Virus record (IMG/VR): IMGVR_UViG_2563366875_000004
Coordinates: 1 to 42,427 of that record
Reading direction: 5' to 3' (one strand)
Length of the DNA stretch: 42,427 bases
Source of the DNA: a virus
Taxonomy: Duplodnaviria > Heunggongvirae > Uroviricota > Caudoviricetes
The position numbers and the translations under genes were made by a program. The notes beneath the pieces are model-generated. The model was not told where the DNA came from. It worked only from the letters and a program-made list of their open reading frames with translations, and searched no databases. Shown one piece after another: positions 5,537-42,427 of the stretch (the first letter of the stretch is position 1; every line of letters starts with the position of its first letter).

Positions 5537-5537
5537 A

Positions 5538-8599: not shown

Positions 8600-8631
8600 T
8601 TTGAGAAGTAATTTTTACCGGGAGGAAATTT

Positions 8632-9402: not shown

Positions 9403-9417
9403 TTGCCGGAGGCGCTT

Positions 9418-9822: not shown

Positions 9823-9837
9823 CCACTAAATAAGGTA

Positions 9838-10149: not shown

Positions 10150-10150
10150 G

Positions 10151-10507: not shown

Positions 10508-10602
10508 TTAAATTTAGCACTGTTAAAAATTTAATCCTTAACCGGAGGGATTTCTGTACCCTCAGAACATCAGGAGGCCGCCTGAAAGGGCAGTAATGAA
10601 AA

Positions 10603-10998
10603 ATGACTGAATTAACAAAAGAGCAATTAATCGAAGAAGCTAAATTAAAAATAGCGATTGCGAAATGCCACCCTAATTCAGAGATGGCACGGGTAGAGGG
10701 TGAGTTATTCAAAATTGCACTGGCATCGCTGGAAGCGGAGCCTGTTGGTGAATTTTATGAGTATAAGCCGGGCGGCTGGTATCAGCATTCGGCTGGAGAT
10801 AAAGCGCCAAAGTGGATACAACTCTACGCTGTGCCGCCAGCGCTCGCAGCACCTGAAGGACTGGTTAAAGCAGTGCGCTTTTATGAGCAGGTTAAGCGTG
10901 AGAATCCGCCAGCTGAAACCGGAGCATGGAAAGACGCTGTTGATTGGGTGCTCAAAGAGGCTTGCCAGGCTGTAAACATTGGCATCAAAGGAGAGTGA
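10603..10998 (+). CDS. Ea22-like hypothetical protein (131 aa)
   Basis: Shares motif ALASLEAEPV with the N-terminus of the ORF at 11220 and the IKGE C-terminal junction with the ORF at 9838. Confidence 0.55.
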   Translation: MTELTKEQLIEEAKLKIAIAKCHPNSEMARVEGELFKIALASLEAEPVGEFYEYKPGGWYQHSAGDKAPKWIQLYAVPPALAAPEGLVKAVRFYEQVKRENPPAETGAWKDAVDWVLKEACQAVNIGIKGE

Positions 10999-10999
10999 T

Positions 11000-11218
11000 A
11001 TGCCTACATTATTCAGAAAAGAATATCCGCGAAAAAGTAGAGCGACAGAATTTTTGTTTCTCATTCTGTTTATCGTGTTGCTGATACCGATATCCCCGCT
11101 AATTTTTGTCTGGGCAATCGGGAAAATAATTGAGCCAGTTATTGAATTGTATACCGACGTTGTATGGGCGCCGTTCAACACACTGCACAACAAAATCAAC
11201 CCATATAAGGAAAGCTGA
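11000..11218 (+). CDS. Small single-pass membrane protein (72 aa)
   Basis: ATG after AAAGGAGAGTGA; hydrophobic stretch FLFLILFIVLLIPISPLIFVWAIG. Confidence 0.45.
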   Translation: MPTLFRKEYPRKSRATEFLFLILFIVLLIPISPLIFVWAIGKIIEPVIELYTDVVWAPFNTLHNKINPYKES

Positions 11219-11219
11219 T

Positions 11220-11753
11220 ATGACCACTATTACCAGAGAAAACGCGGAGATTAAATCATTCATCACTGGTTTCCTGAGCGACCCGGCGCACGATAACCAA
11301 TCTTCAGACAGCCTGCTTGCCAATGTGTTTCGTATCGCACTGGCATCGCTGGAAGCAGAGCCAGTGGCGTGGAAGGCAACCTTCACGCAAATTGACAATG
11401 AATATAATACGTTCACTGCTCTGTATTCTGACAAAGCAGAAGTCGAACGGTGGGGGCGACTGCATGAAATAGGTGACTTTCGGGCAGAAATAACACCGCT
11501 TTACGCAGCGCCGTCAGCGCCGGTAATTCCGGATGGTTGGATAAGCTGTAGTGAGCGAATGCCGGAAAAGAACCAGAACGTACTTATTTCGGTGAATTTC
11601 GATAGCTCTCTGGTTGAACCGCTAATATGCTCCGCACGCTATACCGGAAGCACATTCCGGCGAGGAGATGCAACGATTAAACCGGGTAATGGTATTGAGC
11701 AGGCAACTCACTGGATGCCGCTACCGGAACCACCGCAGGAGGTGAATCAATGA
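11220..11753 (+). CDS. Ea22-like N-terminus plus DUF551-like C-terminal domain protein (177 aa)
   Basis: ATG after AAGGAA; C-terminal W...MPLPEPP pattern. Confidence 0.55.
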   Translation: MTTITRENAEIKSFITGFLSDPAHDNQSSDSLLANVFRIALASLEAEPVAWKATFTQIDNEYNTFTALYSDKAEVERWGRLHEIGDFRAEITPLYAAPSAPVIPDGWISCSERMPEKNQNVLISVNFDSSLVEPLICSARYTGSTFRRGDATIKPGNGIEQATHWMPLPEPPQEVNQ

Positions 11754-11833
11754 CCAGGCCTGAAGCATTCACAACGGTAGGAATTGCAATGGCGGTGGCG
11801 CTGGTGGTGCATTCGATTTGCCGCTGGGGGTGA
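11750..11833 (+). CDS. Putative 27-aa hydrophobic peptide (MTRPEAFTTVGIAMAVALVVHSICRWG)
   Basis: ATGA overlap with stop of the preceding gene; GGAGG RBS 8 nt upstream; followed by a hairpin and U-rich tract. Confidence 0.25.
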   Translation: MTRPEAFTTVGIAMAVALVVHSICRWG

Positions 11834-11875
11834 TAAGTGGAATAGTACGGGGTATCGTGCGCCCCGCAGATTTGA

Positions 11876-12049
11876 TTATTTATTTGGGGAGATAATGTCC
11901 TGAAGCGTGACGATTACTTCTTCATCTGTATCTATATTTCGGAGTTGATATGTAATGTCGTCGTTTCTAATAATTTGCACTACAAGCCATTCTCCATTTT
12001 TTTCACGTAAGTGAACAGTACTGTTTTCCGATATACCATGAACGGTCAT
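11876..12049 (-). CDS. Hypothetical small protein (57 aa) in an AT-rich island
   Basis: Hand-translated (below track threshold); weak RBS; convergent with the early-right operon. Confidence 0.25.
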   Translation of the reverse strand: MTVHGISENSTVHLREKNGEWLVVQIIRNDDITYQLRNIDTDEEVIVTLQDIISPNK

Positions 12050-12199
12050 TTTTATACCTTTTGTGTTGTGTGAAGGAGCAGTATAGTCAGAAATGAGACA
12101 AGTGAAAGGGGATAGAAAGTAATAGTTTGTTTTTGTAGAATTGCTGCGGGTGCTTGAGGCTATCTGCCTCAGGCATGAACACCAAAAGGCAGATAGAGA

Positions 12200-12303
12200 A
12201 AAGCCCCAGTTAACATTACGCGTCCTGCAAGACGCTTAACATTAATCTGAGGCCATATCTATGCGACACATAGAGATTAGCCTCTTACGGACCGAAAGGT
12301 CAA
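12200..12303 (-). ncRNA. Sok-like antisense RNA with its promoter (approximate bounds)
   Basis: Minus-strand -35 TTGACC (12298-12303) and -10 TAATCT (12274-12279), 18-nt spacer, reading antisense across the mok start; 3' end not defined. Confidence 0.4.
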
Positions 12304-12320
12304 GGAGAAGCAGGCTATGA
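12261..12320 (+). CDS. mok-like upstream leader ORF (19 codons) coupled to hok
   Basis: ATG 12261; stop TGA overlaps the hok ATG (CTATGA). Confidence 0.3.
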   Translation: MRHIEISLLRTERSRRSRL

Positions 12321-12472
12321 AGCAGCAAAAGGCGATGTTAATCGCCCTGATCGTCATCTGTTTAACCGTCATAGTGACGGCACTGGTAACGAGGAAAGAC
12401 CTCTGCGAGGTACGAATCCGAACCGGTCAGACGGAGGTCGCTGTCTTCACAGCTTACGAACCTGAGGAGTAA
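12317..12472 (+). CDS. hok: Hok/Gef-family type I toxin (51 aa)
   Basis: MKQQKAMLIALIVICLTVIVTALVTRKDLCEVRIRTGQTEVAVFTAYEPEE closely matches Gef/HokC as recalled; GGAG RBS; mRNA 5' segment 12146-12159 is complementary to 3' segment 12522-12536 (fbi-like). Confidence 0.8.
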   Translation: MKQQKAMLIALIVICLTVIVTALVTRKDLCEVRIRTGQTEVAVFTAYEPEE

Positions 12473-12542
12473 GAGACCAGGCGAGGGAGAAATCCCTCGC
12501 CACCTCTGATGTGTCAGGCATCCTCAACGCACCCGCACTTAA

Positions 12543-12567
12543 CCCGCTTCGGCGGGTTTTTGTTTTT
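12543..12567 (+). terminator. Rho-independent terminator of the hok mRNA
   Basis: CCCGC-TTCG-GCGGG stem-loop followed by TTTTTGTTTTT. Confidence 0.6.
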
Positions 12568-12692
12568 ATTTTCAACGCGTTTGAAGTTCTGGATGGTGCC
12601 GGAATAGAATCAAAAATACTTAAGTAGCGCGCAGGGAGAAGAGGGATGGACCCCAAATGGGGGAGTGCTATTTATCTGGAAGGATTCTGTTG

Positions 12693-12953
12693 ATGAAAAT
12701 CGAAGAATTACGTGAAATTTTTAGTGAAGATGGCCTCTATACTGTGCGCGTTGAGAATGGCGCTATTGTCAGCCACTGCCGTATTAAATGTTTACAGTCT
12801 CAACAAAGGAAGAGTGGAACTGCGTTAATTCATTTGGTGGATGGGCTTGTGACGGATGGTTTTATTTTGCGTGCAAATGAATTTGTCACATCGTTGCCGT
12901 CTCTGAAAGAAGCTGGGATTAAGGCTGGTTTTTCTGCTTTTGAAGATGTGTGA
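12693..12953 (+). CDS. Hypothetical protein (86 aa), nin-like region
   Basis: ATG at 12693 after GGA; AT-rich codon usage suggests a foreign insert. Confidence 0.45.
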   Translation: MKIEELREIFSEDGLYTVRVENGAIVSHCRIKCLQSQQRKSGTALIHLVDGLVTDGFILRANEFVTSLPSLKEAGIKAGFSAFEDV

Positions 12954-13019
12954 ATTCAACTACAATTTAGCGCAGGGCTGAACCCCTGCTGAGTAACACT
13001 GTGCCACCGGAGAAAGCCG

Positions 13020-13298
13020 ATGGCGCAAAATTCCAGACTACACAATTCTGATAATTCAGCCGTCTTTGCCAGCAGGCATGGGCGGCGCTCTCATGCATTT
13101 AAATCTGACTGGTTCCAGCATGACCCCTGCACTGAAGAACAAGCTGAATGGCTAATTCAGTGCTACCGCAGACACGGATACGAGATTAAGAAAGCCCTCA
13201 GCCTCGATTATCGTCACTGGATAATCTACGTCAGGCTCCCTTATTCCGAACGCCCACCACGCCCGTCCCGCACATTCCAGCAACGGATCTGGAGGTAA
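13020..13298 (+). CDS. Hypothetical protein (92 aa), nin-like region
   Basis: GGAGAAAG RBS upstream of ATG. Confidence 0.5.
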   Translation: MAQNSRLHNSDNSAVFASRHGRRSHAFKSDWFQHDPCTEEQAEWLIQCYRRHGYEIKKALSLDYRHWIIYVRLPYSERPPRPSRTFQQRIWR

Positions 13299-13299
13299 C

Positions 13300-14349
13300 G
13301 TGCGGGTATTACTTCGACCTGTTCCGGTACCGGAACTCGGGCTGGTGGTCCTTAAGCCTGGTCGTGAATCCATGCAGGTATTTCATAACCCTCGAGTGCT
13401 GGTGGAGCCTGAACCGAAAAGCATGCGCGGTCTGCCGTCCGGAGTCGTCCCTGCCGTCCGCCAGCCGCTGGTGGAGGATAAATCATTACTGCCATTTTTC
13501 AGCAATGAGCGTGTGATTCGTGCTGCTGGCGGCGCTGGTGCACTGTCTGACTGGCTGTTGCGTCATGTCAAATCCTGCCAGTGGCCTCATGGTGACTATC
13601 ATCACAGTGAAATCGTCATACATCGTTATGGTACCGGCGCGATGGTGTTGTGCTGGCACTGCGACAACCAGCTGCGTGACCAGACTTCCGAATCACTCGG
13701 GCAACTTGCTCACCAAAACCTGTCAGCATGGATGATTGACGTCATCCGTCACGCAATGAATGGCACACAGGAGCGGGAATTATCGCTGGCTGAATTATCC
13801 TGGTGGGCAGTCTGCAATCAGGTGGCGGACGCGCTACCGGAGACAGTATTACGTCGTTCTCTGAGGTTACGTGCGGAAAAAATCCGCTCGGTGTACCGCG
13901 AAAGCGACATCATGCCGGGAGAGCAGACAGCCACCAGCATACTGAAGCAGCGCACAAAAAATATTGTGCTATCGCCTCACGCCCACCAGCAACAGAACTC
14001 ACCGCAGGAAAAGGCGGTGGTCAGCATTGCTGTTGATCCTGAGTCTCCGGAATCTTTCATGAAGCGGCCTAAACGTCGCCGTTGGGTAAATGAGAAATAC
14101 ACGCGCTGGGTGAAGACACAGCCGTGTGCGTGTTGCGGTAAGCCAGCCGACGATCCCCATCACCTGATTGGTCATGGTCAGGGCGGAATGGGGACAAAAG
14201 CCCACGATATTTTCACGCTACCGCTGTGTCGGGAGCATCACAACGAGCTTCATGCGGATCCGCTGGCGTTCGAAGAAAAGCATGGTTCCCAGGTTGATTT
14301 AATTTTTCGTTTTCTTGATCACGCCTTTGCAACCGGCGTGCTCGGGTAA
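13300..14349 (+). CDS. DUF968-family (YdfU-like) protein with C-terminal HNH-like Cys/His motif
   Basis: GTG start after GGAGG; C-terminus CACCGKPADDPHHLIGHG...CREHHNELH. Confidence 0.65.
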   Translation: MRVLLRPVPVPELGLVVLKPGRESMQVFHNPRVLVEPEPKSMRGLPSGVVPAVRQPLVEDKSLLPFFSNERVIRAAGGAGALSDWLLRHVKSCQWPHGDYHHSEIVIHRYGTGAMVLCWHCDNQLRDQTSESLGQLAHQNLSAWMIDVIRHAMNGTQERELSLAELSWWAVCNQVADALPETVLRRSLRLRAEKIRSVYRESDIMPGEQTATSILKQRTKNIVLSPHAHQQQNSPQEKAVVSIAVDPESPESFMKRPKRRRWVNEKYTRWVKTQPCACCGKPADDPHHLIGHGQGGMGTKAHDIFTLPLCREHHNELHADPLAFEEKHGSQVDLIFRFLDHAFATGVLG

Positions 14350-14361
14350 AAGAGGTTACTG

Positions 14362-14820
14362 ATGCGTATAGAGTTTGTTTTGCCTTACCCGCCGACGGTG
14401 AACACCTACTGGCGACGTCGTGGCAGCACATATTTTGTATCAAAAGCCGGTGAGCGTTATCGCCGTGATGTGGCGCTTATTGTTCGCCAGCAGCGACTGA
14501 AATTAAACCTGTCCGGAAGGCTGGCGATAAAGATTATTGCAGAGCCACCGGATAAGCGCCGTCGTGACTTGGACAATATTCTGAAAGCACCACTGGATGC
14601 ACTGACACATGCGGGGTTGCTTATCGACGACGAGCAGTTTGATGAAATCAATATTGTGCGCGGACTGCCTGTTCCTGGTGGTCGGTTGGGTGTGAAGATT
14701 TACGAAATTACAGGTGATAACGATGGCGCGAGATATTCAGCAGGTTATGGAGCGGTGGGGAGCATGGGCTGCAAACAATCACGAAGATGTGTCATGGGCG
14801 TCAATCGCTGCTGGTTTTAA
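14362..14820 (+). CDS. rusA: RusA-family Holliday junction resolvase (with C-terminal extension overlapping Q)
   Basis: N-terminal [19 protein letters not shown] and [26 protein letters not shown] are RusA hallmarks. Confidence 0.8.
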
Positions 14821-15109
14821 AGGATTAATCCCGCCGAAAGTGAAATCACGCCCTCAGTGTTCTGATGATGATGCAATGATAATTTGTGGCTGTATGGCCC
14901 GGTTGAACAAGAAAAATCAGGATTTGCACGATTTGTTGGTGGATTATTACGTAGGTGGAATGACTTTTATGGGGCTGGCACGAAAGCATGGGTGTTCGGA
15001 TACCTGTATTGGCAAGCGCCTGCAGAAAGCGGAAGGGGTTATTGATGGCATGTTGATGATGCTTGATATCCGACTGGAGATGGACCGATACGTAGAACGA
15101 ATTATGTAG
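14723..15109 (+). CDS. Short Q-like late antiterminator (QuuD-like, 128 aa)
   Basis: ATG after AGGTGA; size and position immediately upstream of a pR'-like promoter and terminator. Confidence 0.65.
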
Positions 15110-15113
15110 GCGC

Positions 15114-15143
15114 TTGACCAGACACATTGTCCGGGGCTATATT
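15114..15143 (+). promoter_or_regulatory. pR'-like late promoter (-35 TTGACC, 18-nt spacer, -10 TATATT)
   Basis: Directly after the Q stop; followed about 65 nt later by a terminator, as for lambda pR'/6S RNA/tR'. Confidence 0.4.
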
Positions 15144-15206
15144 TCCGACGCAACCGCAAAATCGGTTGTCGGGATTAGCACCCCGGATGTTTACGGAGCG
15201 ATATGA

Positions 15207-15226
15207 GACGCGCCCGCGTCTTTTTT
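15207..15226 (+). terminator. tR'-like intrinsic terminator
   Basis: GACGC-tetraloop-GCGTC followed by TTTTTT. Confidence 0.5.
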
Positions 15227-15390
15227 CATATCGTTTGCACAGTCACATTCGCGATTAATGGCGGGCTGTGTGGGGGAGCCGAAAGGCTCGCCGGTTTCCG
15301 TACCCGGTAGTGCTAACCCCGCACAGTTCGCCACCACGATGATTAGCACCTGACGGTGGCGATAATGTCCAAATGTACGGAGTTATCGTT

Positions 15391-15954
15391 ATGACCACTC
15401 AGATTTCTGTCGAAACTCTTTCCCCAATTACACACAACCAAATTCCCGTTATCACTACCGAGTTACTGGCACAGCTTTACGGTACAGATTCAGATAACAT
15501 CAAAAAGAATTATTCGCGTAACGCAGATCGTTTTTATGAAGGTAAGCACTTCTACAAAGTGATTGGTGATGAACTAAAGAATTTGCGGGTGACTTTAAGT
15601 CACTCACAAAATCCCATCTCTCCCAAAACCCGCTCGCTCATACTCTGGACAGAACGCGGAGCAGCCCGCCACGCAAAAATGCTGGAAACCGATCAGGCAT
15701 GGGAGGTATTCGAAAAACTGGAAGATTGTTATTTCAGCCGAAAACAACCAGCTGCAGCACAAAACACATCTATCGAAAATGATGGATGCGCATTACTGAT
15801 CCACTTCGATAAACACGGTCAGGTCGACTTCACGGAAAAAGTACCCGCCGATGCGATGGTATGCACTCTGGAACGGTTCAAATTTTATCTGGAACAACGC
15901 GGCTGGATCGTTGCCCGTAAAGAACAACTGGTGGAATGGTTGATGCGGTTTTAG
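15391..15954 (+). CDS. ORF6N/Rha-like DNA-binding domain protein (candidate antirepressor or regulator), 187 aa
   Basis: N-terminal pattern ITTELLAQLYGTDSDNIKKNYSRNADRFYEGKHFYKV plus LILWTERGAARHAKMLETDQAWEVFEKLE resembles ORF6N-type domains as recalled; GGAG RBS. Confidence 0.55.
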   Translation: MTTQISVETLSPITHNQIPVITTELLAQLYGTDSDNIKKNYSRNADRFYEGKHFYKVIGDELKNLRVTLSHSQNPISPKTRSLILWTERGAARHAKMLETDQAWEVFEKLEDCYFSRKQPAAAQNTSIENDGCALLIHFDKHGQVDFTEKVPADAMVCTLERFKFYLEQRGWIVARKEQLVEWLMRF

Positions 15955-15999
15955 GTGCGACAGCCCCACCATCTTTATAGTAGTGGGGCTGAAAGTTCA

Positions 16000-16545
16000 T
16001 TACTGAGTGACTTTTAGCCCACTAAATTTAAAAATATACTCTGGTTCTGTTACTTTTCCATAGAGGGTCATGCTTGATTCAAGGATGCAGTCCTTTGAAT
16101 TAGGGATAAAACGCCCTGAAAATGAAACTATATCACCAGGTTTTAATTCAGAGGCCACCGTGAAAATTTCAGAGTCAGGGCTGATAAGAGTATGATGACG
16201 AGAATCGGAAAATGCGTTATTCCAGGTTTTAACTTCAATGTCTGGTGCTATCTCCAAAGCCAACACGCCGTAACCATCACTATTGGCAGAAACAGTTTTT
16301 ACAGTACCAATCCAGTTTTTAACTTTTTTATCTTTTCTTAAGGTTGCGCAAACCGCTTTGTCTCGTTTTGCTTTTATTCCGCCCAGCTTCATGTCGTTAT
16401 CAACACCTTTAGCTGATGAAATTGCGTTTGAGACCGCCTCGATGAACTTTTCCTGCTGCTCAGGCATCTGGTAAGCAAAGGCTGGTGTCTGAAATATGGT
16501 AACCGAAAACGCTATGGTCATGATTTTTGTAAAAACACTATTCAT
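16000..16545 (-). CDS. Secreted (Sec signal peptide) protein of unknown function, 181 aa; AT-rich cargo gene
   Basis: Signal peptide MNSVFTKIMTIAFSVTIFQTPAFA with AFA cleavage motif; opposite strand to the late operon; lower GC than neighbours. Confidence 0.65.
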   Translation of the reverse strand: MNSVFTKIMTIAFSVTIFQTPAFAYQMPEQQEKFIEAVSNAISSAKGVDNDMKLGGIKAKRDKAVCATLRKDKKVKNWIGTVKTVSANSDGYGVLALEIAPDIEVKTWNNAFSDSRHHTLISPDSEIFTVASELKPGDIVSFSGRFIPNSKDCILESSMTLYGKVTEPEYIFKFSGLKVTQ

Positions 16546-16737
16546 ATTTTTCCCTAAAACAAGAAATAATGAAACAAAGAGCGCTCAAATATAAGCTTGC
16601 TTAGATTACCCATCCCTTAAACCCTTATCAACAGTATGTATTTGGGTTGTATTGTTCATCATGTGTGTTTAGGGCTTTACGATCGTAAAAAGTTGAATAT
16701 CCTGTTAAGAGTTGTTACTTCGCCACACAGCTTAAAC

Positions 16738-16759
16738 CCGCCGCCAGGCGGTTTTTTTT
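16738..16759 (+). terminator. Intrinsic terminator
   Basis: CCGCC-GCCA-GGCGG followed by T8. Confidence 0.55.
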
Positions 16760-16956
16760 GTGTCCGGAAAGTGGTGCAGTACGTTAAATGCGCATGTTGT
16801 TTTTTCTAAAATTCAGAAATAATAAAAACACATGCATATATTTACGAATATTGACATAATTTTCTATTGAAAAAAGAGCCGGCATTATTAATATCCATCT
16901 TCGGTTCCGAAGGGGATGTAAAGCGCGGTCATTTTTATTTCTCTTGAGGAACCAAT

Positions 16957-17032
<76 letters not shown>

Positions 17033-17035
17033 TAT

Positions 17036-17110
<75 letters not shown>

Positions 17111-17379
17111 GCAGAGGACGATAGATACTAGGTTGTGTTAGGCACTGACACATTTTATGTGGGGCGTTTTTCCTGACTCCTTACCTCGCCCTGTACTGTA
17201 ATGAGTGATATCGGTTGCAGCACCAGTGCCGTTTTTTACGCCACCGGAATGGTGCATTATTGGTAGAGATTTGCAATGTCTCTGGCAGGGGCCGGTGATG
17301 CATCATTCTGGTGTTGTAAATAACACCATGACATTGAGATTAATCATATATTAAGCAAAACCTGGAAACACATCCTTAA

Positions 17380-17404
17380 CCGCCTCCACCAGGCGGTTTT
17401 TTTT
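17380..17404 (+). terminator. Intrinsic terminator downstream of the tRNA pair
   Basis: CCGCCT-CCACC-AGGCGG followed by T8. Confidence 0.6.
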
Positions 17405-17731
17405 ATTCTTAATTCGAAAAAAAGAAAACACGGACACTGATAATGTCCGTGCGGCAATGCCATGTAAGTCAGCGATGAATATGGCGCAAAAAAGCGCGGC
17501 TATCGGATTAACGCCGCGGGACAAAGTCCGTGAAGAAGAATAAGTATCGATCTCCTTCCGGAGACGAGTTGATATTACTAAGCTTTAAAAATGGTTTAAA
17601 TCCTCAGATTGACCTTAATTTCCGGTAAGTCTTATTTCATTTTCTCCGCGCTACCTCCGGCGCACATCACATCAGATAACACCACACAAAAGGCATCTGC
17701 AGGTGCCTTTGACGGGGTGTTGTTTTTTTAC

Positions 17732-17754
17732 GGGCCGCTGGTGGCCCTTTTTTA
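17732..17754 (+). terminator. Intrinsic terminator immediately upstream of the holin gene
   Basis: GGGCC-GCTGGT-GGCCC followed by TTTTTTATTT; 18 nt before the holin RBS. Confidence 0.5.
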
Positions 17755-17772
17755 TTTACAGGAGAAAAAAGT

Positions 17773-18165
17773 ATGTCTGAACCCTTATCCGGTTCCGGCA
17801 CGGCTGCGGCGCTCGGCGGGGCGACGGTATTCGGGCTGTTTACCGGAACGGATTTCGGGATTGTGTTTGGTGCGTTCGCCGGGGCGTTATTTGTGGCAAC
17901 AATTCCGCAGGCGCTTTCAGCCTGGCGTGTGGCAGCGCATTTTCTGGTGTCGTTCATTATCGGCGTGCTGGGCGCAGAGGTTCTGGCATCCTGGCTGGTA
18001 AAGCATACAGAGTTTGATGGTGCACCTGTTGACGCATTGTGTGCAGTGCTGGTGTCTGTATTGTCGGTAAAAGTGCTGTCCTTTGTGCACAGGCAGGACG
18101 TTATATCACTGATGTCCTGTCTGCTCTCCCGCCTGAAGAGTGGAGGAGGCGACAATGTTAAGTAA
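17773..18165 (+). CDS. Holin-like membrane protein (130 aa)
   Basis: AGGAGAAAAAAGT RBS; multiple Gly/Ala-rich transmembrane segments; first gene of the lysis cassette. Confidence 0.6.
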   Translation: MSEPLSGSGTAAALGGATVFGLFTGTDFGIVFGAFAGALFVATIPQALSAWRVAAHFLVSFIIGVLGAEVLASWLVKHTEFDGAPVDALCAVLVSVLSVKVLSFVHRQDVISLMSCLLSRLKSGGGDNVK

Positions 18166-18430
18166 CCTTCCCGGATTGCTGAATGTGGCGTTATGCACGG
18201 TTATCGTGCTGACGCTCTTTTTTTATCGTCGCCGTGATTCCAGACATAAACCGCTGATGTCATGGCTGGCCTGGCTGCTGATGCTGCTGTATGCCTTTGC
18301 GCCCCTCAGCTATCTGTGTGGTCGCCCGTTAGCAACGGGCTGGCTGGAAGTGTTTTTTAATCTGTTGTTCTGCGTGCTGGTAATACGCGCACGCGGGAAC
18401 GTCGCAAGAATCTTTCCATTGTTGAGGTGA
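18155..18430 (+). CDS. Second lysis-cassette membrane protein (about 92 aa)
   Basis: ATG after GGAGGAGG; hydrophobic segments LLNVALCTVIVLTLFFY and LAWLLMLLYAFAPL. Confidence 0.5.
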   Translation: MLSNLPGLLNVALCTVIVLTLFFYRRRDSRHKPLMSWLAWLLMLLYAFAPLSYLCGRPLATGWLEVFFNLLFCVLVIRARGNVARIFPLLR

Positions 18431-18810
18431 ATATGTCGGGTAAATTCAGATTCAGCCGTCGCAGTGAAAAAAATCTGGAGGGCGTCAAACCACAGCTGGC
18501 TGCTGTCGTTCGCCGTGCCCTTGAGCTGACGGAGGTTGATTTCGGTATTACGGAAGGCCTGCGCAGTAAGTATCGCCAGAAACAGCTGGTCGCGGAAGGG
18601 AAAAGCCAGACTATGAACAGCCGCCACCTGACCGGTGATGCGGTGGATGTTGTGGCCTACATTGGCAGCCAGGTGTCATGGGACTGGCCTCTGTACGAGA
18701 AAATCGCGCAGGCATTTAAGCAGGCTGCCGCAGAGCTGGGAACTGCCATCGAATGGGGCGGGGACTGGAAAACACTGAAAGACGGGCCTCACTTTCAGTT
18801 GAAACGCTGA
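18427..18810 (+). CDS. Endolysin, peptidase M15 (VanY-like) family
   Basis: Motifs SRHLTGDAVD and WGGDW...GPHF typical of M15 zinc peptidase endolysins; ATG at 18427 or 18433. Confidence 0.75.
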   Translation: MNMSGKFRFSRRSEKNLEGVKPQLAAVVRRALELTEVDFGITEGLRSKYRQKQLVAEGKSQTMNSRHLTGDAVDVVAYIGSQVSWDWPLYEKIAQAFKQAAAELGTAIEWGGDWKTLKDGPHFQLKR

Positions 18811-18824
18811 TAACCAGGTGTGTT

Positions 18825-19007
18825 ATGAGCAGAAAACACTGGACACACAGAATGCCGCGAACGGCGGCGAAATGGGCACTGGTAGCGATACTGGTGCCTT
18901 TTTTATTGGTGGGATGCGTCAGCCTGGATAAGGCGCGCCAGCTTTTCGATACGGCTTCTCAGGTCTGCCAGCTTATCGATGGCGTTCGGCAGTGTCTGCA
19001 GAACTGA
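18825..19007 (+). CDS. Small lipoprotein (60 aa), o-spanin-like
   Basis: Lipobox LLVGC after a signal sequence; directly after the endolysin; no i-spanin ORF identified. Confidence 0.45.
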   Translation: MSRKHWTHRMPRTAAKWALVAILVPFLLVGCVSLDKARQLFDTASQVCQLIDGVRQCLQN

Positions 19008-19178
19008 TCACCTGTAATAGCAGAATATTTTGCTGAAAAATGAAGGGTGCGCCAGCGTCCGGAAAGCATGAAATTCTGTGTTAGTGGCTATTCAATAAAA
19101 TAAATTCTTTCTGTCGCCGCGAATACTCAAATGTTGATCAGTGCCCGGTGCGGCGACGGGCTTCGATATCAGGAGACG

Positions 19179-19478
19179 ATGATGGAAAAAACAGAAAACA
19201 AACCGATTGTAATTGGTGCTGATGCTGCTCCGTTTAAGTTTGAGTTGTCTCAACTGGTGGAGATGCGCATCAGTGATGAATGGGGTGAGGTTAAAGCCCG
19301 TGCGCAGTATGCGGATGGCGAAAACCAGTACTTGATCCACTACAAGGCAGCTGACGGTCGCGCCACGACGGAGTGGTTTGGTGAGTCAATGCTGGAAGCA
19401 ACAGAAGATGATCGTCATCCAGGTTGCCCGGTATTTGCTGGTATGGAATTACCGGAAGGTGCAGTCGTTACTGAGTAA
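19179..19478 (+). CDS. Hypothetical protein (99 aa)
   Basis: AGGAGACG RBS before ATGATG; acidic soluble protein. Confidence 0.5.
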   Translation: MMEKTENKPIVIGADAAPFKFELSQLVEMRISDEWGEVKARAQYADGENQYLIHYKAADGRATTEWFGESMLEATEDDRHPGCPVFAGMELPEGAVVTE

Positions 19479-19523
19479 CAGGCATTACAGCAGCCCTTCT
19501 GTGTGAGGGGCTGCGATAATGCT

Positions 19524-19724
19524 TTAGTTGTCTTTCATAAATCCTTTAATTGCCCATCCCACAAGCCTGGTGATGCTGTATATCAACAAGGCACATATCA
19601 GGGAAACAAGGATATCAAACAGTGAAAATCCCCGAGCCTCTGTTGATAAAAGGCCGAAAATGAACACCAGAATAGCTAACAGAATTCCTACCCGGTGAAA
19701 ACCTTTAGAAATCGTGTTTTTCAT
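19524..19724 (-). CDS. Small two-helix membrane protein (66 aa), opposite strand
   Basis: GGAGGA RBS 4 nt before ATG; two hydrophobic helices; same position as the lambda bor-type lysogenic-conversion gene. Confidence 0.5.
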   Translation of the reverse strand: MKNTISKGFHRVGILLAILVFIFGLLSTEARGFSLFDILVSLICALLIYSITRLVGWAIKGFMKDN

Positions 19725-19784
19725 TTGTCCTCCGTATTGGTTTTTTAAAGGGTGGAAATTTTAACATCAGAAGAGTGAAGTTCT

Positions 19785-20135
19785 ATGCCATCACGAATCC
19801 CCCGCGCATGCCGTAAACGTGGATGTGCAGGTACAACCACAGACAGTTCTGGTTACTGCGATAAACATCGCGGTGAAGGCTGGGTGCAGCACCAGCGCGG
19901 ACTGAGCCGCCACCAGCGCGGCTATGGCTCAAAATGGACGGTGATTCGTGCCCGTATTCTGAAGCGCGATAAAGGTCTGTGTCAGTTGTGTCTGCGTGTC
20001 GGTGTGGTGAGCGAGGCGAAAACCGTCGACCACATCATCCCGAAAGCGCATGGCGGAACAGACGCAGACAGCAACCTGCAGAGTCTGTGCTGGCCTTGCC
20101 ATAAAGAGAAAACAGCGCGCGAACGTATCAACTGA
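19785..20135 (+). CDS. HNH endonuclease (terminase-associated)
   Basis: C-x-x-C...H-x-x-x-H pattern (CQLCLR...VDHIIPKAHGGTDADSNLQSLCWPCH); immediately upstream of the terminase genes. Confidence 0.8.
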   Translation: MPSRIPRACRKRGCAGTTTDSSGYCDKHRGEGWVQHQRGLSRHQRGYGSKWTVIRARILKRDKGLCQLCLRVGVVSEAKTVDHIIPKAHGGTDADSNLQSLCWPCHKEKTARERIN

Positions 20136-36526: not shown

Positions 36527-37116
36527 TGGATACGTTACAGGATGATTATACAAAATTGTTGTATGGCCTGATGCCGCCGGGACCTGCATGGTCAGATACC
36601 GACGGTGTACTTGACGGTCTGGCACCATCGCTTGTGCGTGTTCACCAGCGGGCTGATGAACTGGTGATTGAAATCGATCCCGGTCAGTCCACAGAGCTGA
36701 TTGATCGTTATGAAGAATTGTATGGTTTACCTGATTCCTGTTCCCCTGTCGGAACCCAGACATTACGCCAGCGTCAGCAACGTCTTGAAGCAAAAGCCAA
36801 TGTAGCTGGTGGCATAAATGAGCAGTTCTTCCTGGATCAGCTTGAGGCGTTGGGATATACCGGCGTGACGATCGAACAGTTCCAGCACCTGGATGCAAGC
36901 CCCGATCCGGAATGGGGAGATCGCTGGCGTTATTTCTGGCGTGTGACGTTACCAGTGGATGCTGGCGCGCAGTGGCAGACATGTACGGATGCCTGTAACA
37001 CACCGATCCGGACGTGGGGCGATACGATTGCGGAGTGCGTGATTAATAAATTATGTCCGTCGCATACCGTTGTTTTATTTTCCTATCCAGATGAGGATGA
37101 AGATGCACAGGATTGA
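36526..37116 (+). CDS. Tail protein, Mu gp48 / YmfQ-like
   Basis: AAGGAG RBS; 196 aa acidic protein preceding the fibre genes. Confidence 0.65.
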   Translation: MDTLQDDYTKLLYGLMPPGPAWSDTDGVLDGLAPSLVRVHQRADELVIEIDPGQSTELIDRYEELYGLPDSCSPVGTQTLRQRQQRLEAKANVAGGINEQFFLDQLEALGYTGVTIEQFQHLDASPDPEWGDRWRYFWRVTLPVDAGAQWQTCTDACNTPIRTWGDTIAECVINKLCPSHTVVLFSYPDEDEDAQD

Positions 37117-38113
37117 TACGCTGACAGCGGTAAAAGATAAGTTTGGCCCGGGCAAGAACGGATTTACTGACGGAAATATTCGGACGGGGCGTCTTGCCAC
37201 CTGGCTGAACAGTGCCATGTGGGATGCCATTCAGGAAGAATTGTGTGGTGTCATTGAGAAGGCCGGGATAGAGCTGAATAAAGAAGAACACGATCAGCTA
37301 TATAAAGCCATATTATTACTGGTGGGTGGTGCAATTAACGAAGAGGCATTGCTGATAAAAAATAACCTTTCGGATGTGGAAAACAAGGATAAGGCTGTTG
37401 AAAACCTCGAATTAAAACCCACGGTGGACAAGGCAAAAAATGCCGTTCAGCGTGATGGCGACACCATGACAGGAAAGCTGACGCTGCCCCAGACCTCCGG
37501 ATTTGGTGTTAACACTGACAATGCCCTGGGAGGTAACTCAATTGCTTTCGGGGATAACGATACAGGTATAAAACAAAACGGCGACGGCATTCTGGATGTT
37601 TATGCGAATGGACAGCATGTATTTCGTTTCCAGAATGGTGTGGCGATAGCGTTAAAAAATATTCAGGCCGGAGATGCTAAAAAATTCACGTTATCCAGCG
37701 CCAACAACTCCACGAAAAACGCAACGTTTAATTTATGGGGCAATTCATCCCGACCTGTAGTTGCAGAGCTTGGTGATGATTCCGGCTGGCATTTTTACAG
37801 CCAGAGAAATACCGATGGCAGTATCACATTCGCTGTAAACGGACAGATGACCCCATCAAACTATGGAAATTTCGATGCCCGTTATCAGCAGCGAAATGGC
37901 GGCGTGCAGGATGTGCGTTATGGTTCCGAAATGTATTACAACCCGGGAGGTAACGAGATAACCTGGACGTTTCGCTCACCTTCAGGCCACGGATTATCCG
38001 GTATTTATGTGCAGGATACCGGAAGAAGTTCGGCAGATAACATTGGTGGTGTGTATTACAGACCGCTTCAGAAACTGATTAATGGCACCTGGTATAACGT
38101 GGCGAGTGTTTAA
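37103..38113 (+). CDS. Short tail fibre protein (336 aa)
   Basis: Internal ATG 37103 giving N-terminus MHRIDTLTAVKDKFGPGKNGFTDGN, a conserved fibre N-terminal pattern. Confidence 0.7.
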   Translation: MHRIDTLTAVKDKFGPGKNGFTDGNIRTGRLATWLNSAMWDAIQEELCGVIEKAGIELNKEEHDQLYKAILLLVGGAINEEALLIKNNLSDVENKDKAVENLELKPTVDKAKNAVQRDGDTMTGKLTLPQTSGFGVNTDNALGGNSIAFGDNDTGIKQNGDGILDVYANGQHVFRFQNGVAIALKNIQAGDAKKFTLSSANNSTKNATFNLWGNSSRPVVAELGDDSGWHFYSQRNTDGSITFAVNGQMTPSNYGNFDARYQQRNGGVQDVRYGSEMYYNPGGNEITWTFRSPSGHGLSGIYVQDTGRSSADNIGGVYYRPLQKLINGTWYNVASV

Positions 38114-38115
38114 CA

Positions 38116-38661
38116 ATGTTGCATTTAAAAAATATTACTGCGGGTAATCCAAGAACCGCGGAGCAATATCAGCTGACAAAACAATATGGTATCACCTGGC
38201 TTTTTTCGGAAGACGACAAAAACTGGTATGAAGAGCTGAAAAATTTTGCCAGTGACACCATAAAAATGGTTTACACCGGAGACGGGCGCGTGGTGTGGGT
38301 CGGTAAGGATGTGACAGGTATTGAACCCCGTAACGCCAGTGTTATTGAAGTTCCTGATATTACCGCTAACCGCCGCATTACCGCACCGGGTTACTGGTTC
38401 TACCGCAATGATGAATTTGTTTTTGACTACAAACTTAAAGCGGAAGATGAGCGTGATGCCCTGTTAAAACAGGTCAGCATCATGACCAGCGAATGGGAAA
38501 AAGACCTGCTGCTGGGATTAATCAGTGACGAAGACAGGGAGAAGCTGAAAGCGTACCGCATTTACGCGAAATCGCTGCAGGCGATGGATTTCAGCACCAT
38601 CACTAATAAAACCTCATATAACGCTATTGAATGGCCCGCCTCTCCGGAAACCTCTTCCTGA
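38116..38661 (+). CDS. Tail fibre assembly chaperone
   Basis: 181 aa directly after the fibre gene. Confidence 0.65.
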   Translation: MLHLKNITAGNPRTAEQYQLTKQYGITWLFSEDDKNWYEELKNFASDTIKMVYTGDGRVVWVGKDVTGIEPRNASVIEVPDITANRRITAPGYWFYRNDEFVFDYKLKAEDERDALLKQVSIMTSEWEKDLLLGLISDEDREKLKAYRIYAKSLQAMDFSTITNKTSYNAIEWPASPETSS

Positions 38662-38684
38662 TTTAATTTATTGCGAGAAAAACT

Positions 38685-41600
38685 ATGTCTGTAGTGATAT
38701 CAGGTGCGCTGATTGATGGCGCAGGCATCCCCATGTCCGGATGCCACATAATTCTGAAATCCCGGGTAAACACCTCAGAGGTGGTGATGCGCACAGTTGC
38801 CGACGTGGTGACAGGAAACTGTGGCGAGTACTGTTTTAAGGCGCAGACCGGAAAATATTGCGTATATCTGAAACAGGACTGGCGCGACGAGTACTGTGTT
38901 GGCGATATTGCTGTATACGATGACTCAAAGCCTGGCACGTTGAACGATTTTCTGACCGCTCTCGATGAAGGCGACCTCAAGCCGGATGTTGTTAAACGTT
39001 TTGAGGAACTGGTGGCGCAGGCGCAGCAGAGCGCGGAAGCGGCAGCGGAAAGCGAACGACAGGCCGGGCAACATGTCGCTGATGCGCAACAAATTAAGAG
39101 CGACTGCGAGACGCTGGCGGATAACGTACAGCAGAATGCAGAAGCCGTTGCCGAAGATAAAAAGCAGGTGGCGCTCCTTGCATCATCTACCACACAGGAT
39201 GCGGCCCGCGCAGAACAGGCGGTCAAAGATGCCGATAAGATAGTCCAGAAAGCGGTCGATAAACTCGGTGAAGCCGCAACGCTGACCGGCGAGGCAAAAG
39301 CCAGCGCCGAAGCGGCAGCAAAAAGCGAACAGAACGCGAAACAGCACAGGGACGAGGCGCAACGGATAGTCGATGACCTGAAAGGAACCAACGCCAGCAC
39401 GACGCAAAAAGGTCTGGTGCAACTCTGTAGTGATACAGACAACGACAGCGAAGAACTGGCAGCCACACCAAAAGCCGTCAAAGCCGTCATGGACGAGACG
39501 AAAACAAAAGCGCCGCTGGACAGCCCGGCATTCACCGGCACGCCCACCACACCAACCCCACCGGACGATGCTGCCGGTCTGGAAACCGCGAACGCGGCAT
39601 TTGTCCGCAAACTGCTCGCTGCACTGGTTGACTCGTCACCGGAAGCCCTGGACACGCTGAACGAGCTGGCAGCGGCGCTGGGCAATGACCCGGAGTTTGC
39701 GACGACAATCATGAACGCGCTGGCAGGTAAACAACCGCTGAACGACGTGCTGACGGCAATCAGTGAACTGACGCAACGGGCAGATAATCTTCTGTGCTTT
39801 AATCAGGACGGGAATGCTTCACTGTCTCCGCTGTCAGAAAAAGCCCGGTCACTGCTGGCACAGGCCACAGTGGAAGCCATGCGTAATGAGCTTGAGCTGA
39901 AAAGCGCAGCGGTAAGGGACATACAGACAGACCTTTACGACAGCACGGAAGGTCGCGTTGCGCTGCCTGGTGCATTTGGTTACGGAATGACGGACGCCGG
40001 AGCACGTTCAGTTATTGCCAGCAATATAGCGGATATAGCCAGAACCGCTCACAACCTGCACCCGGGACGGTATTACACCTTTTCCACACAAACGGAAGAG
40101 ACGACCGGAATAACAGAAATTATCTGGCTGGATAATGGCTGGGGCGACAAAACAAGCCAGACAGCAACAAAGCTGGTTCTGTTTTTTGGAAAAGACGGAC
40201 GGATTCTCATGACCGTTCGTGGCGATAATATCTCCGCCCCGGTCACCTGGACGAATCTGACGCCACAACTGGGCAATGCAGCACAAAAAGATGCGCAGGA
40301 GAATATTTACGACCGCACCGAAGGCCGCCTGGCGATTCCTGGCATGTTCGGATTCGGGAAAATATTTTCACCTGATGATGTGGTCCGGTTTAATTCAGAA
40401 GCTGATTTATTGAGGTGGGCAAAACAGGTCACACCGGGTGAATATTTTGTAAATGGTTCCGCCGGCATTCTTCCTGGCGTCGTTTTCCGGGGAATGATTC
40501 GCATCCGCTTCCTGGAAGCTGACCGGGCTACACCGAACCCTCCATATACGGCAAAAGCCATTATTTTCTACGGTGTTAACGGTGATATTTATTATAACCG
40601 TTATTGGTCCACAGGTGATGGATTGTTAACTGGCTGGATAAACCTGAAGGTCAACGAGGCTTCACTCAGGGCACTGATTGAAACCCGCGCCCCACTGAAC
40701 AGCCCGGCACTGACCGGAACGCCGTCTACGCCAACACCGCCGGATGATGCAGCAGGTAATGAAATAGCCAATGCGGCGTTTGTCCGCAAATTGCTTGCCG
40801 CGCTGGTTGACTCATCACCGGAAACCCTGGACACGCTGAACGAGCTGGCAGCGGCGCTGGGTCATGACCCGAACTTTGCGACGACAATCACGAACGCACT
40901 GGCAGGTAAACAGCCGCTTAATGACGTGTTAACGGCGGTCAGCCAGATAACACCGGAAGAAAACACACTGCCTTATTTCAGTGAAGAGGGCCGGATTTTA
41001 CTGGCGCAGCTGTCAGAAAAAGCCCGCGCATTACTGGCACTGGACACACCTGAAGCCATGCGCACGGAGCTTGAGCTGAAAGCGGCTGCGACGATGGAAC
41101 CCCAGACCGATATCCGTGACCGCACACCTGGCAGGCTGGCAGTGTCAGGCATGTATGGATTCGGTCAGGCATTTACCAGCACTGAAGCCCTGGCATTTAA
41201 CGGACAGGCTGATTTTGCTGAATGGCTGAAAGAGGCCACCCCGGGGCGTTATGCGGTCAGTATTGCGGACTCTTCCACGCTGCTGGCTGGCACAACGAAA
41301 TTTAACGGCATCATTGATGTGATGTGGTCCCCCTTTGATAACGACGAATCAGATGCAATACGCAAATTCAAAACGTTGCTGTGTTTTAACCAGTATTACG
41401 AAGGCGAACACAATATTCATCGCCTGACTTACCGCTGGAGTGGAAATAACTGGAATGCAACAGTAAGCCCCGTCATTTACGACGGCGATTCGCTGGCCTT
41501 CCTGCTGTCCCGGACGGCGGGCAACGGCCCGTCCTCATATTACAAATATCCGGCAATTGGCTCTCTTATTCTCGCAGTCTATCAGGGAACGGCGGCTGGC

Positions 41601-41828
41601 GATAAGGCAATCAAAATTGGGCTGGGTGACATTGTACCGGGGTCGCGACTCGGTCCGGTAACTATCACCTGCTCAATTAATGATGCAGGTTCATATGTTT
41701 CCACCCCACGCGTTTCTGCCGGAGGTGCCGGGGCATTCAGCTTTCCCGGTCGCTATCAGGCGCTTTCTGGATTCAGTAATTCGTATGGCGATGAAGGCCG
41801 CATTTGTCTGTTTGTGCGCATCGAGTAA
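38685..41828 (+). CDS. Long tail fibre protein (1047 aa) with internally duplicated modules
   Basis: Conserved fibre N-terminus MSVVISGALIDGAGIP, Ala-rich coiled coil, two copies of a SPxxTGTP-TPTPPDDAAG fibre-repeat module, three DxxEGRxAxxGxxGxG-plus-beta units. Confidence 0.8.
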   Translation: MSVVISGALIDGAGIPMSGCHIILKSRVNTSEVVMRTVADVVTGNCGEYCFKAQTGKYCVYLKQDWRDEYCVGDIAVYDDSKPGTLNDFLTALDEGDLKPDVVKRFEELVAQAQQSAEAAAESERQAGQHVADAQQIKSDCETLADNVQQNAEAVAEDKKQVALLASSTTQDAARAEQAVKDADKIVQKAVDKLGEAATLTGEAKASAEAAAKSEQNAKQHRDEAQRIVDDLKGTNASTTQKGLVQLCSDTDNDSEELAATPKAVKAVMDETKTKAPLDSPAFTGTPTTPTPPDDAAGLETANAAFVRKLLAALVDSSPEALDTLNELAAALGNDPEFATTIMNALAGKQPLNDVLTAISELTQRADNLLCFNQDGNASLSPLSEKARSLLAQATVEAMRNELELKSAAVRDIQTDLYDSTEGRVALPGAFGYGMTDAGARSVIASNIADIARTAHNLHPGRYYTFSTQTEETTGITEIIWLDNGWGDKTSQTATKLVLFFGKDGRILMTVRGDNISAPVTWTNLTPQLGNAAQKDAQENIYDRTEGRLAIPGMFGFGKIFSPDDVVRFNSEADLLRWAKQVTPGEYFVNGSAGILPGVVFRGMIRIRFLEADRATPNPPYTAKAIIFYGVNGDIYYNRYWSTGDGLLTGWINLKVNEASLRALIETRAPLNSPALTGTPSTPTPPDDAAGNEIANAAFVRKLLAALVDSSPETLDTLNELAAALGHDPNFATTITNALAGKQPLNDVLTAVSQITPEENTLPYFSEEGRILLAQLSEKARALLALDTPEAMRTELELKAAATMEPQTDIRDRTPGRLAVSGMYGFGQAFTSTEALAFNGQADFAEWLKEATPGRYAVSIADSSTLLAGTTKFNGIIDVMWSPFDNDESDAIRKFKTLLCFNQYYEGEHNIHRLTYRWSGNNWNATVSPVIYDGDSLAFLLSRTAGNGPSSYYKYPAIGSLILAVYQGTAAGDKAIKIGLGDIVPGSRLGPVTITCSINDAGSYVSTPRVSAGGAGAFSFPGRYQALSGFSNSYGDEGRICLFVRIE
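39510..39775 (+). repeat. Copy 1 of an approximately 260-bp intragenic direct repeat (approximate bounds)
   Basis: Near-identical DNA stretches, e.g. GACACGCTGAACGAGCTGGCAGCGGCGCTGGG in both copies. Confidence 0.6.
40690..40955 (+). repeat. Copy 2 of the intragenic direct repeat (approximate bounds)
   Basis: As for copy 1; about 1.18 kb downstream in the same frame. Confidence 0.6.
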
Positions 41829-41842
41829 TGAGGAAATAAGAC

Positions 41843-42427
41843 ATGAAAATCAGAGCGGTAAAAGGCATCAGAAACGCGCATTATCTTGAAAATGGCGCGG
41901 TTGACTGCGAGGTGTTATTTGAAGGTGAAACGGAATTCGTCCCGTATACCGCCATGCAGGATGATACCGCAATGACAGGCCAGCGCATCTGGGAAGAGTT
42001 ACAGAGCGGCAAGTGGGGGGAAATCGCCCCATTCACCGTCACGCCTGAACTTATCGCAGCGGCAAAAGATGCCAAACGCCAGGAAATCGAAGCCTGGCGC
42101 ACAGAACAGGAGGCGCAGCCGTTCACGTTCGAATGGAACGGTCGCACCTGGAATGCTGGCCCAGACTCACTGGCCCGTCTCTATCCGGTGGTAATGGCTG
42201 CAAAATCTGATACGGCACGAACCGCCCTTGCGTGGGGCGACGCTGATAATCAACAGGTGAAACTGTCGATGCAGGAACTTGAAGAACTGGCGGCAGCAAT
42301 GGCGCAGGCACAGGTCGATCGCAATGACGAGATTTATCAGCGTCAGCGGGAGATGAAGCAAGAGCTGAATAACCTGGAGGATTTGCATTCAATCAGGAAA
42401 CTGGTCGTTAGCTCAGAAAAACCTTGA
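41843..42427 (+). CDS. Tail fibre assembly chaperone (second copy type)
   Basis: RBS GAGGAA; 194 aa; stop codon is the last three bases of the window. Confidence 0.65.
   Translation: MKIRAVKGIRNAHYLENGAVDCEVLFEGETEFVPYTAMQDDTAMTGQRIWEELQSGKWGEIAPFTVTPELIAAAKDAKRQEIEAWRTEQEAQPFTFEWNGRTWNAGPDSLARLYPVVMAAKSDTARTALAWGDADNQQVKLSMQELEELAAAMAQAQVDRNDEIYQRQREMKQELNNLEDLHSIRKLVVSSEKP

Follow-up and report, generated by a model that had tools for sequence, protein, structure and literature searches.

Modular organization of the fiber gene

The DNA examined here (the window) is the IMG/VR virus record IMGVR_UViG_2563366875_000004, taken at its full length of 42,427 nucleotides (nt), and our subject is the side tail fiber gene near its right end (38685-41828, plus strand), which encodes a protein of 1047 amino acids in one uninterrupted open reading frame (ORF). 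Sequence comparison indicates that this protein is a composite of interchangeable modules, a side fiber of the lambda Stf (side tail fiber) type carried by a phiP27-like prophage. It is identical, by exact-sequence look-up, to NCBI entry WP_001542825.1, where it bears the name "prophage tail fiber N-terminal domain-containing protein."

The protein begins with an anchor of the lambda Stf N-terminal type (N; residues 1 to 134, 38685-39086; this and all following modules lie on the plus strand), which covers the full PF08400 profile in Pfam (E = 3.3e-61) and whose residues 1 to 93 match the lambda tail fiber chain PDB 9e7m in a sequence search of the PDB (E = 1.4e-16). An Ala/Glu/Gln-rich stretch, presumed from its composition alone to form a coiled-coil shaft (CC; residues 135 to 237, 39087-39395), follows and is associated with an imperfect 28-nt repeat (39030-39057 and 39303-39330); positions 39001 to 40000 have an AT skew of +0.36 and a GC content of 0.58. 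The Phage_fiber_2 repeat (F2; residues 238 to 275, 39396-39509) terminates in VMDETKTK and is recognized both by PF03406 (residues 238 to 277, E = 2.7e-15) and, in the PDB search, by the Mu fiber S chains 5yvq and 8ju3 (residues 225 to 280). The remainder is built from two copies of a shaft module, A, three domains that we term X, and a terminal domain, Y. Copy A1 (residues 276 to 405, 39510-39899), recognized by the internal repeat and by a lambda Stf module (KAPLDSP...LNELAAALGNDP...), is followed by X1 (residues 406 to 530, 39900-40274) and X2 (residues 531 to 668, 40275-40688), which directly adjoin each other. Copy A2 (residues 669 to 799, 40689-41081), the second copy of the repeat, lies between this pair and X3 (residues 800 to 935, 41082-41489), and the protein matches PDB 9d93, "tail collar fibers gp4," over residues 693 to 755 (E = 1e-10). 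The beta-rich distal domain Y (residues 936 to 1047, 41490-41825), present in a single copy, closes the protein with ...CLFVRIE and is the presumed receptor-binding tip.

The PDB sequence search matched the anchor, F2 and the core of A alone, with no relatives there for X or Y, and neither domain has a model in Pfam or NCBIfam. The fiber matches PHROG 2636 ("tail fiber protein") at E = 1.3e-288 in four stretches. The profile, 568 positions long, represents a fiber with a single block, and X1-X2 and X3-Y each align separately to its distal part.

A gene for a 194-residue DUF4376 protein, the presumed fiber chaperone (41843-42427, plus strand; PF14301, E = 1.6e-17; PHROG 1141), starts 14 nt past the fiber stop codon, has its own GAGGA ribosome-binding site and ends with its stop codon on the final base of the window. 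DUF4376 proteins have been described as tail fiber chaperones in Alteromonas phages (PMC10579305). Such a gene lies 3' of the fiber in all 6 of the 6 related loci that we compared (L001, 4980-5573; L002, 6156-6728; L003, 6186-6749; L004, 4080-4655; L005, 3789-4373; L006, 3504-4067). The PF08400 anchor, the Phage_fiber_2 repeat, the downstream chaperone and the in-frame repeat described below together bear out the reading, put forward in an earlier note made from these DNA letters, of a long tail fiber built from tandemly duplicated modules, and the ORF is as that note gave it.

An in-frame direct repeat encodes the shaft module

A repeat search returned two direct repeats within the gene, one of 254 nt at 83% identity (39510-39763 and 40689-40942) and one of 129 nt at 72% identity (39818-39946 and 40997-41125), both with a spacing of 1179 nt, which equals 393 codons and thus keeps the copies in frame. 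Self-alignment of the gene by blastn merged the two into a single match (gene positions 826 to 1218 against 2005 to 2397, 77.9% over 398 nt, E = 4.9e-88), an internal similarity far beyond chance or coiled-coil bias; the coiled-coil region (residues 135 to 237) lies upstream of, and outside, the repeat. The repeat reported in the earlier note is real, but its figures of roughly 260 bp at about 85% identity need revision, the length being about 390 to 440 nt at 75 to 84% identity. In register, the copies share 83.5% over 39510-39763, 81.6% over the 266 nt first reported (that is, about 82% and not 85%) and 74.8% over the 437 nt of 39510-39946. The second-copy interval that had been given, 40690-40955, was one base out of register and yields 23% identity, against 81.6% for 40689-40954. 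The longest exact run shared by A1 and A2 is 37 nt (39646-39682, plus strand, equal to 40825-40861).

At the protein level, self-blastp of the whole sequence gave only the trivial full-length match, and the repeat was seen after the protein had been split in two. Residues 276 to 505 match residues 669 to 900 at 56% identity over 231 residues (E = 2e-77), and the second unit (residues ~500 to 614) matches the third at 35% over 124 residues (E = 3e-18). What the repeated DNA codes for is module A of the shaft, not the beta-rich domains.

Three knob-like units and a single tip

The protein contains exactly three copies of the motif D..[EP]GR.A..G..G.G, at residues 419 to 434 in X1 (39939-39986), 543 to 558 in X2 (40311-40358) and 812 to 827 in X3 (41118-41165), and each copy precedes a homologous domain of ~110 to 125 residues (pairwise E = 1e-9 to 1e-17). 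There are exactly three homologous units, as had been noticed earlier, but since the motif precedes its homologous domain it opens each unit rather than ending it. Nor are the three units equivalent, although all consist of the motif plus X, because only the third X continues into the C-terminal Y. An LF[VI]R signature followed by one to three residues closes all the complete family members examined (119 proteins), 104 to 186 residues past the last X, and homologs of 404 to 490 amino acids consist of an anchor, X and a Y-like end. We considered the motifs as sites of intragenic recombination and ruled them out on their DNA, in which the copies share 52 to 61% identity and no exact run exceeds 8 nt; the conservation of the motif is structural and not recombinational.

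Structures of the three units were predicted with AlphaFold2 (monomers, from the family alignment), with mean predicted local distance difference test (pLDDT) scores of 79.8 for X3-Y and 72.7 for X1-X2. X1, X2 and X3 are predicted to share a common element order, one helix and then four to five strands, and the model of Y is beta-rich. The motif segments ahead of the knobs have low pLDDT in these monomer models, as would be expected of a trimer interface. The structural relatives listed were the AS12 and Belisarius tailspikes, phi11 gp45, Pa193 gp47, the R2 pyocin fiber, Mu S, T4 gp34 and the NF5 gp17 receptor-binding protein, and the structure search with X3-Y placed a similar list of fibers and tailspikes at the top. 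Buth et al. (2018) name largely the same set as structurally related to the Knob domains that stand in tandem in R-type pyocin fibers; in their description these knobs arose by duplication and are characteristic of fibers that bind saccharides (PMC6116203). A Foldseek search of the models against the PDB returned nothing significant. On these models we describe the X domains, with moderate confidence, as "knob-like."

Natural variation in the number of units

Alleles that differ by exactly one period were found twice. At the same prophage position, Escherichia coli SC418 carries a fiber of 654 residues, which is the length of the fibers of the window and of E. coli W minus one period, and the sites that distinguish A1 from A2 show it to be of A1 type up to residue ~322 and of A2 type from residue ~352. 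The 667-residue fiber of pPE4 (locus L006, PP818812.1, deposited as "Actinobacillus phage vB_Apl-pPE4") equals the 1061-residue fiber of Rac-SA53 minus 1182 nt, with the switch at residues ~310 to 341. Both switches fall within the most conserved core of A, which in the window holds the 37-nt exact match, and this run exceeds the shortest stretches quoted as pairing efficiently, 31 to 34 bp for RecA and 23 to 27 bp for Red-beta (PMC3945230). Because two independent allele pairs differ by one period with the crossover in A, we conclude that the repeat recombines. The earlier suggestion that the repeats are substrates for recombination is supported by these natural one-block variants; within the gene, the A shaft module is the only such substrate.

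Age and mosaicism of the modules

A1 and A2 have diverged from each other at synonymous sites (dS) by 0.64 to 0.74, which exceeds the dS of 0.15 to 0.3 between alleles of different strains in most modules, so that either the duplication is old or the two copies came from different fiber lineages. The A modules cluster by position across strains, A1 with A1 and A2 with A2.

Between alleles that are otherwise alike, X2 varies more than any other module, with amino acid identities of 69% and 60% against 94 to 97% in its flanks. Its dS reaches 0.81 against E. coli W and 0.88 against Rac-SA53, far above that of the flanking modules (0.13 to 0.28 in X1 upstream and 0.15 to 0.57 in A2 downstream). 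X2 is an exchanged cassette. The ratio of nonsynonymous to synonymous divergence (dN/dS) is below 1 in all modules for which dS could be estimated, with the highest value in X1 against the E. coli W allele (0.108/0.282). The inner knobs are kept as folded domains and are not decaying relics.

Family breadth and architectures

The X family is narrow: among 1.84 billion representative proteins, a hidden Markov model (HMM) of the motif plus X matched only 105 clusters with a cutoff of E ≤ 1e-3, or 88 with one of 1e-10. Named homologs came from Escherichia (nearly all E. coli, but also E. marmotae and an unnamed species) or Salmonella. The homolog search yielded proteins below ~460 residues only; full-length architectures were taken from complete genomes and the representative library and were parsed with HMMs of the modules. 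N-X-Y is the commonest architecture of the family. The others include N-F2-A-X-Y, N-X-X-Y, N-X-A-X-Y, N-X-A-X-A-X... and the window's own N-F2-A-X-X-A-X-Y, and X-Y is also found behind a P2-type collar anchor (PF12571); natural alleles cover almost every combination of the modules. More than one knob is present in 7 of 28 complete representatives, and the 119 complete proteins, a set biased to short proteins, have one knob in 106 cases, two in 9 and three in 4. The X2-to-A2 junction, which is diagnostic of stacking, occurs in 40 of 5426 complete E. coli genomes.

Some family members show further arrangements. P0203 (846 residues) has the order N-X-A-X-A-X, with three X and two A, and ends inside its third X. 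In P0230, P0236 and P0237 (1009 to 1302 residues) F2-X-A is followed by 550 to 850 residues of unrelated sequence, from which we conclude that X-A blocks have also been grafted onto other kinds of tip. In the E. coli strains SC407 (L004, 1501-4655) and CEA224S (L005, 1501-4373) an Stf-type fiber and a DUF4376 gene stand right after a P2-like tail gene D at the end of the prophage; this position indicates that the fiber-DUF4376 cassette moves between unrelated types of contractile-tail phage, always at the extreme right end.

The chaperone varies together with the tip. Among seven sequences, its first 70 residues are 96 to 99% identical to those of the window in fibers that end in Y and 64 to 66% identical in fibers that end in a different tip, Y', while the C-terminal DUF4376 part is 78 to 94% identical throughout. 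The pattern in the Tfa proteins of lambda and Mu is the opposite.

Many fragments of the family are named "shikimate transporter" in NCBI (P0002, P0003, P0007, P0121 to P0123 and others), mostly as "partial" entries on contigs of ~1 kb, and the UMNF18 fiber region itself carries this annotation. The name is evidently a propagated misannotation, and the fragmentation may be due to internal repeats that break short-read assemblies. The pPE4 phage is recorded as infecting Actinobacillus pleuropneumoniae, and its fiber region shares 88% DNA identity with the E. coli prophage region of the window; the host assignment looks doubtful.

Genomic context of the fiber gene

Upstream of the fiber lie genes for a Baseplate_J protein, a Mu-gp48-like protein, a first fiber (37070-38113) and a Caudo_TAP assembly protein (38116-38661), so that the prophage holds two fiber-plus-chaperone sets in tandem (37070-38661 and 38685-42427). 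The first fiber is of the baseplate type (PHROG 6859), and its start is likely near 37103 rather than at the TTG at 37070. The late region of the window (20001-42427) matches phage phiP27 at 96.4% identity across 73% of the query, and the annotation of the matching phiP27 region includes a sheath protein. The early region (1-20000) is ~90% identical, over 44% of the query, to lambdoid PPompW/Stx-associated prophages and encodes an integrase, a CI-like repressor, replication proteins, RusA, Q, a holin and a terminase. The prophage is a hybrid of a lambdoid early region and a phiP27-like late region. The lambda-type anchor of the "side" fiber belongs here to a prophage with a Mu/phiP27-like contractile tail.

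The window runs exactly from the stop codon of the integrase to that of the chaperone. An early-region protein of 826 residues (1307-3787, minus strand) carries at its C terminus an Rv2179c-like 3'-5' exonuclease domain (E = 6e-68), and its ~640 N-terminal residues have no Pfam match. A Ser/Ala/Cys-rich antisense ORF of 349 residues (38663-39712, minus strand) lies opposite the Ala/Glu-rich region of the fiber and is most likely a by-product of purine-rich coiled-coil codon usage and no gene. Scans for promoters and terminators around the fiber gene scored at or below shuffled expectation, and no internal transcription unit is indicated.

Comparison with known fibers

The fiber shares with lambda Stf the PF08400 anchor (44.5% identity to lambda orf-401 over residues 1 to 110), an Ala-rich shaft, a Phage_fiber_2 repeat and, downstream, an assembly gene of its own, as well as a "KAPLDSP...NTAFV...LNELAAALGNDP.FATT...LAGKQP" module placed straight after MDET(N/K)(R/T)K. 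In the lambda genome the A module begins right after R393 of "...VVMDETNR," and R393 is the junction of a functional lambda-P2 fiber chimera (PMC11338833). Mosaicism and recombination with prophage copies are known for fibers of the Stf and Rac StfR type (PMC3945230). Whereas lambda Stf has one A module, the fiber of the window has two, together with three knob-like X domains and another tip. The distal end of lambda Stf is different, being rich in His and Gly. The chaperone also differs, being DUF4376 in the window and of the Caudo_TAP/Tfa type in lambda. Instead of serving a noncontractile lambda-like tail, the fiber ends a phiP27/Mu-like contractile tail cluster that already has its own fiber and Tfa; this mismatch in tail type is a feature of the context and not of the protein family.

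The closest counterparts, all from the same type of prophage and with the same gene position and anchor, are phiP27 L56/L57, Rac-SA53 tail3/tail4 and the E. coli W fiber (WP_000117760.1). The E. coli W fiber has an identical architecture at 90.5% amino acid identity, and the Rac-SA53 fiber shares the two-block layout but differs in X2 and in its tip. The phiP27 fiber L56, at 490 residues, is a minimal N-CC-X-Y'. Rac-SA53 and pPE4 have the Y' tip and, with it, the chaperone with the different N-terminal half. No function has been described for the phiP27, Rac-SA53 or E. coli W fibers in the searchable literature, and our literature searches on phiP27, Rac-SA53 or DUF4376 fibers found no description of the stacked architecture.

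Compared with established knob fibers (R1/R2 pyocin, T4 gp34, phi11 gp45 and phage K gp144), X and Y have no detectable sequence similarity. The fiber of the window resembles them in the tandem placing of its knob-like domains X1 and X2, an X-X arrangement that recurs in its homologs. It differs from pyocin-type knob fibers in the second full shaft module that lies between X1-X2 and X3. The classic cases of modular fiber evolution are reportedly those of the T-even gp37/gp38 and the P2 H, Mu S and P1 S fibers, as set out by Haggård-Ljungquist in 1992, Sandmeier in 1994 and Tétart in 1998. In such mosaics host-range modules are swapped at conserved linkers, and conserved motifs flank the variable binding domains. 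The module families of the T-even, P2, Mu and P1 fibers are different ones, and the motifs ahead of the knobs are, in the window, unconserved as DNA within the gene. Mosaic fibers and tandem knobs are already established, the protein itself is public under a generic name, and the gene reveals no new mechanism.

Interpretation and alternatives

We consider it probable that the gene as a whole encodes a composite fiber of the Stf type, in which N-CC-F2 is followed by an inner block, A1-X1-X2, and by a complete distal block, A2-X3-Y. Such a fiber would be a homotrimer with the X domains standing as knobs along the shaft, by analogy with the fibers of R-type pyocins, and its distal X3-Y end would be the main receptor binder, its Y tip presumably maturing or folding together with the DUF4376 protein, whose gene starts 14 nt downstream. 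The inner block would mainly add length, roughly 20 to 25 nm by analogy with the R2 pyocin fiber, of which a 364-residue fragment spans about 240 Å (PMC6116203), and may contribute at most secondary sugar-binding sites. The number of units would change by homologous recombination between A copies, through host RecA or the recombinases of co-resident prophages, and this change would be evolutionary variation rather than a programmed switch.

Several points weigh against this account. X2 is the module most often exchanged between near-identical alleles, which is not what one would expect of a mere spacer. The ORFs of the window that were scanned include no Red/RecT-type recombinase, and the enzyme responsible for recombination is for this reason an assumption. 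Finally, the change between one-block and two-block alleles could be either a deletion or an insertion.

The alternative that survives best, a possible but on balance doubtful one, is that the fiber binds receptors at multiple sites. The inner knobs, X2 in particular, would then be independent determinants of specificity, two or three surface features would be read at different heights, and host range would evolve through swaps of the inner knobs as well as of the tip. The cassette-exchange signature of X2 (dS of 0.81 to 0.88 against 0.15 to 0.3 in its flanks) and the dN/dS of X1 speak for this, as does the diversity of the R1 and R2 pyocins, which is maximal at Knob2 and the C-terminal domain, ~100 Å apart, and domains resembling the knobs occur in fibers and tailspikes that bind saccharides (PMC6116203). 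However, the mosaic exchange of X2 could also be neutral hitchhiking between conserved linkers, and 106 of the 119 complete family members have a single knob before the tip. One-block alleles exist, moreover, in otherwise similar prophages, so that a gene can look functional without the inner knobs.

A recent tandem duplication in situ, with the beta-rich domains then diverging rapidly under selection, would account for the exact, in-frame period and for the A-motif-X order that appears twice, but we regard it as improbable and reject it on dS, the divergence of A1 from A2 being several times that between strains. A similarly diverged two-block architecture is also found in E. coli W, Rac-SA53 and others, and the A copies group by position across strains. 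The two blocks are, furthermore, not copies of one unit, the first having two knobs and no tip and the second one knob and a tip, and the many other orders of X and A fit recombination among different fiber genes.

The earlier note had described the domains as stacked or alternative receptor-binding domains. "Stacked" is a fair description of the layout; "alternative," in the sense of programmed switching between receptor-binding ends as in Mu G, P1 C, shufflons or diversity-generating retroelements, is hardly credible. Mu-type phages are known for fiber switching, and the fiber modules are indeed repeated next to a Mu-like baseplate, but all of them lie on one strand in one ORF, and deletion between direct repeats is irreversible. 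The inverted repeats detected number just two and are weak (one of 23 nt with 78% complementarity, one of 20 nt with 75%), and the 26 window ORFs scanned with Pfam include neither an invertase nor a reverse transcriptase. In related loci host uspF/ompN come next downstream, likewise with no invertase or reverse transcriptase. We therefore reject programmed inversion or a retroelement for want of both switching machinery and meaningful flanking inverted repeats. That the long ORF is a chimera produced by a repeat-induced misjoin in assembly is just as remote, even though fiber fragments are common at the ends of short contigs and most homolog matches are "partial": the ORF is uninterrupted, the identical protein is present on 4 contigs in public data (the largest of 4.66 Mb), independent complete genomes, several E. 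coli W assemblies among them, share the architecture of 1046 to 1047 residues, and the X2-A2 junction is found in 40 complete E. coli genomes.

Implications for fiber evolution and engineering

Tail fibers set host range, and engineers swap them to retarget phages and phage-derived delivery particles. The composite fiber described here has the shaft module of lambda Stf, starting at the junction used in the engineered chimera, twice in one gene, and recombination between the A copies yields alleles of one block and of two, all viable-looking, in each of two independent lineages of tip. The mapped module boundaries are candidate splice points for fibers of other lengths or with extra knobs, and the internal repeat is a plausible cause of the frequent fragmentation and misnaming of these genes in draft assemblies.

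A further proposal, which we put forward as speculative and rather unlikely, is that the inner knobs, especially the swapped X2, bind surface glycans apart from the tip and that recombination in A adds or removes a complete shaft-knob-knob block. If this were true, populations could tune the reach of the fiber (for example, to the thickness of O-antigen or capsule) as well as the number of its specificities. This would constitute an axis of length and valency in the evolution of host range, unlike the simple swapping of tips.

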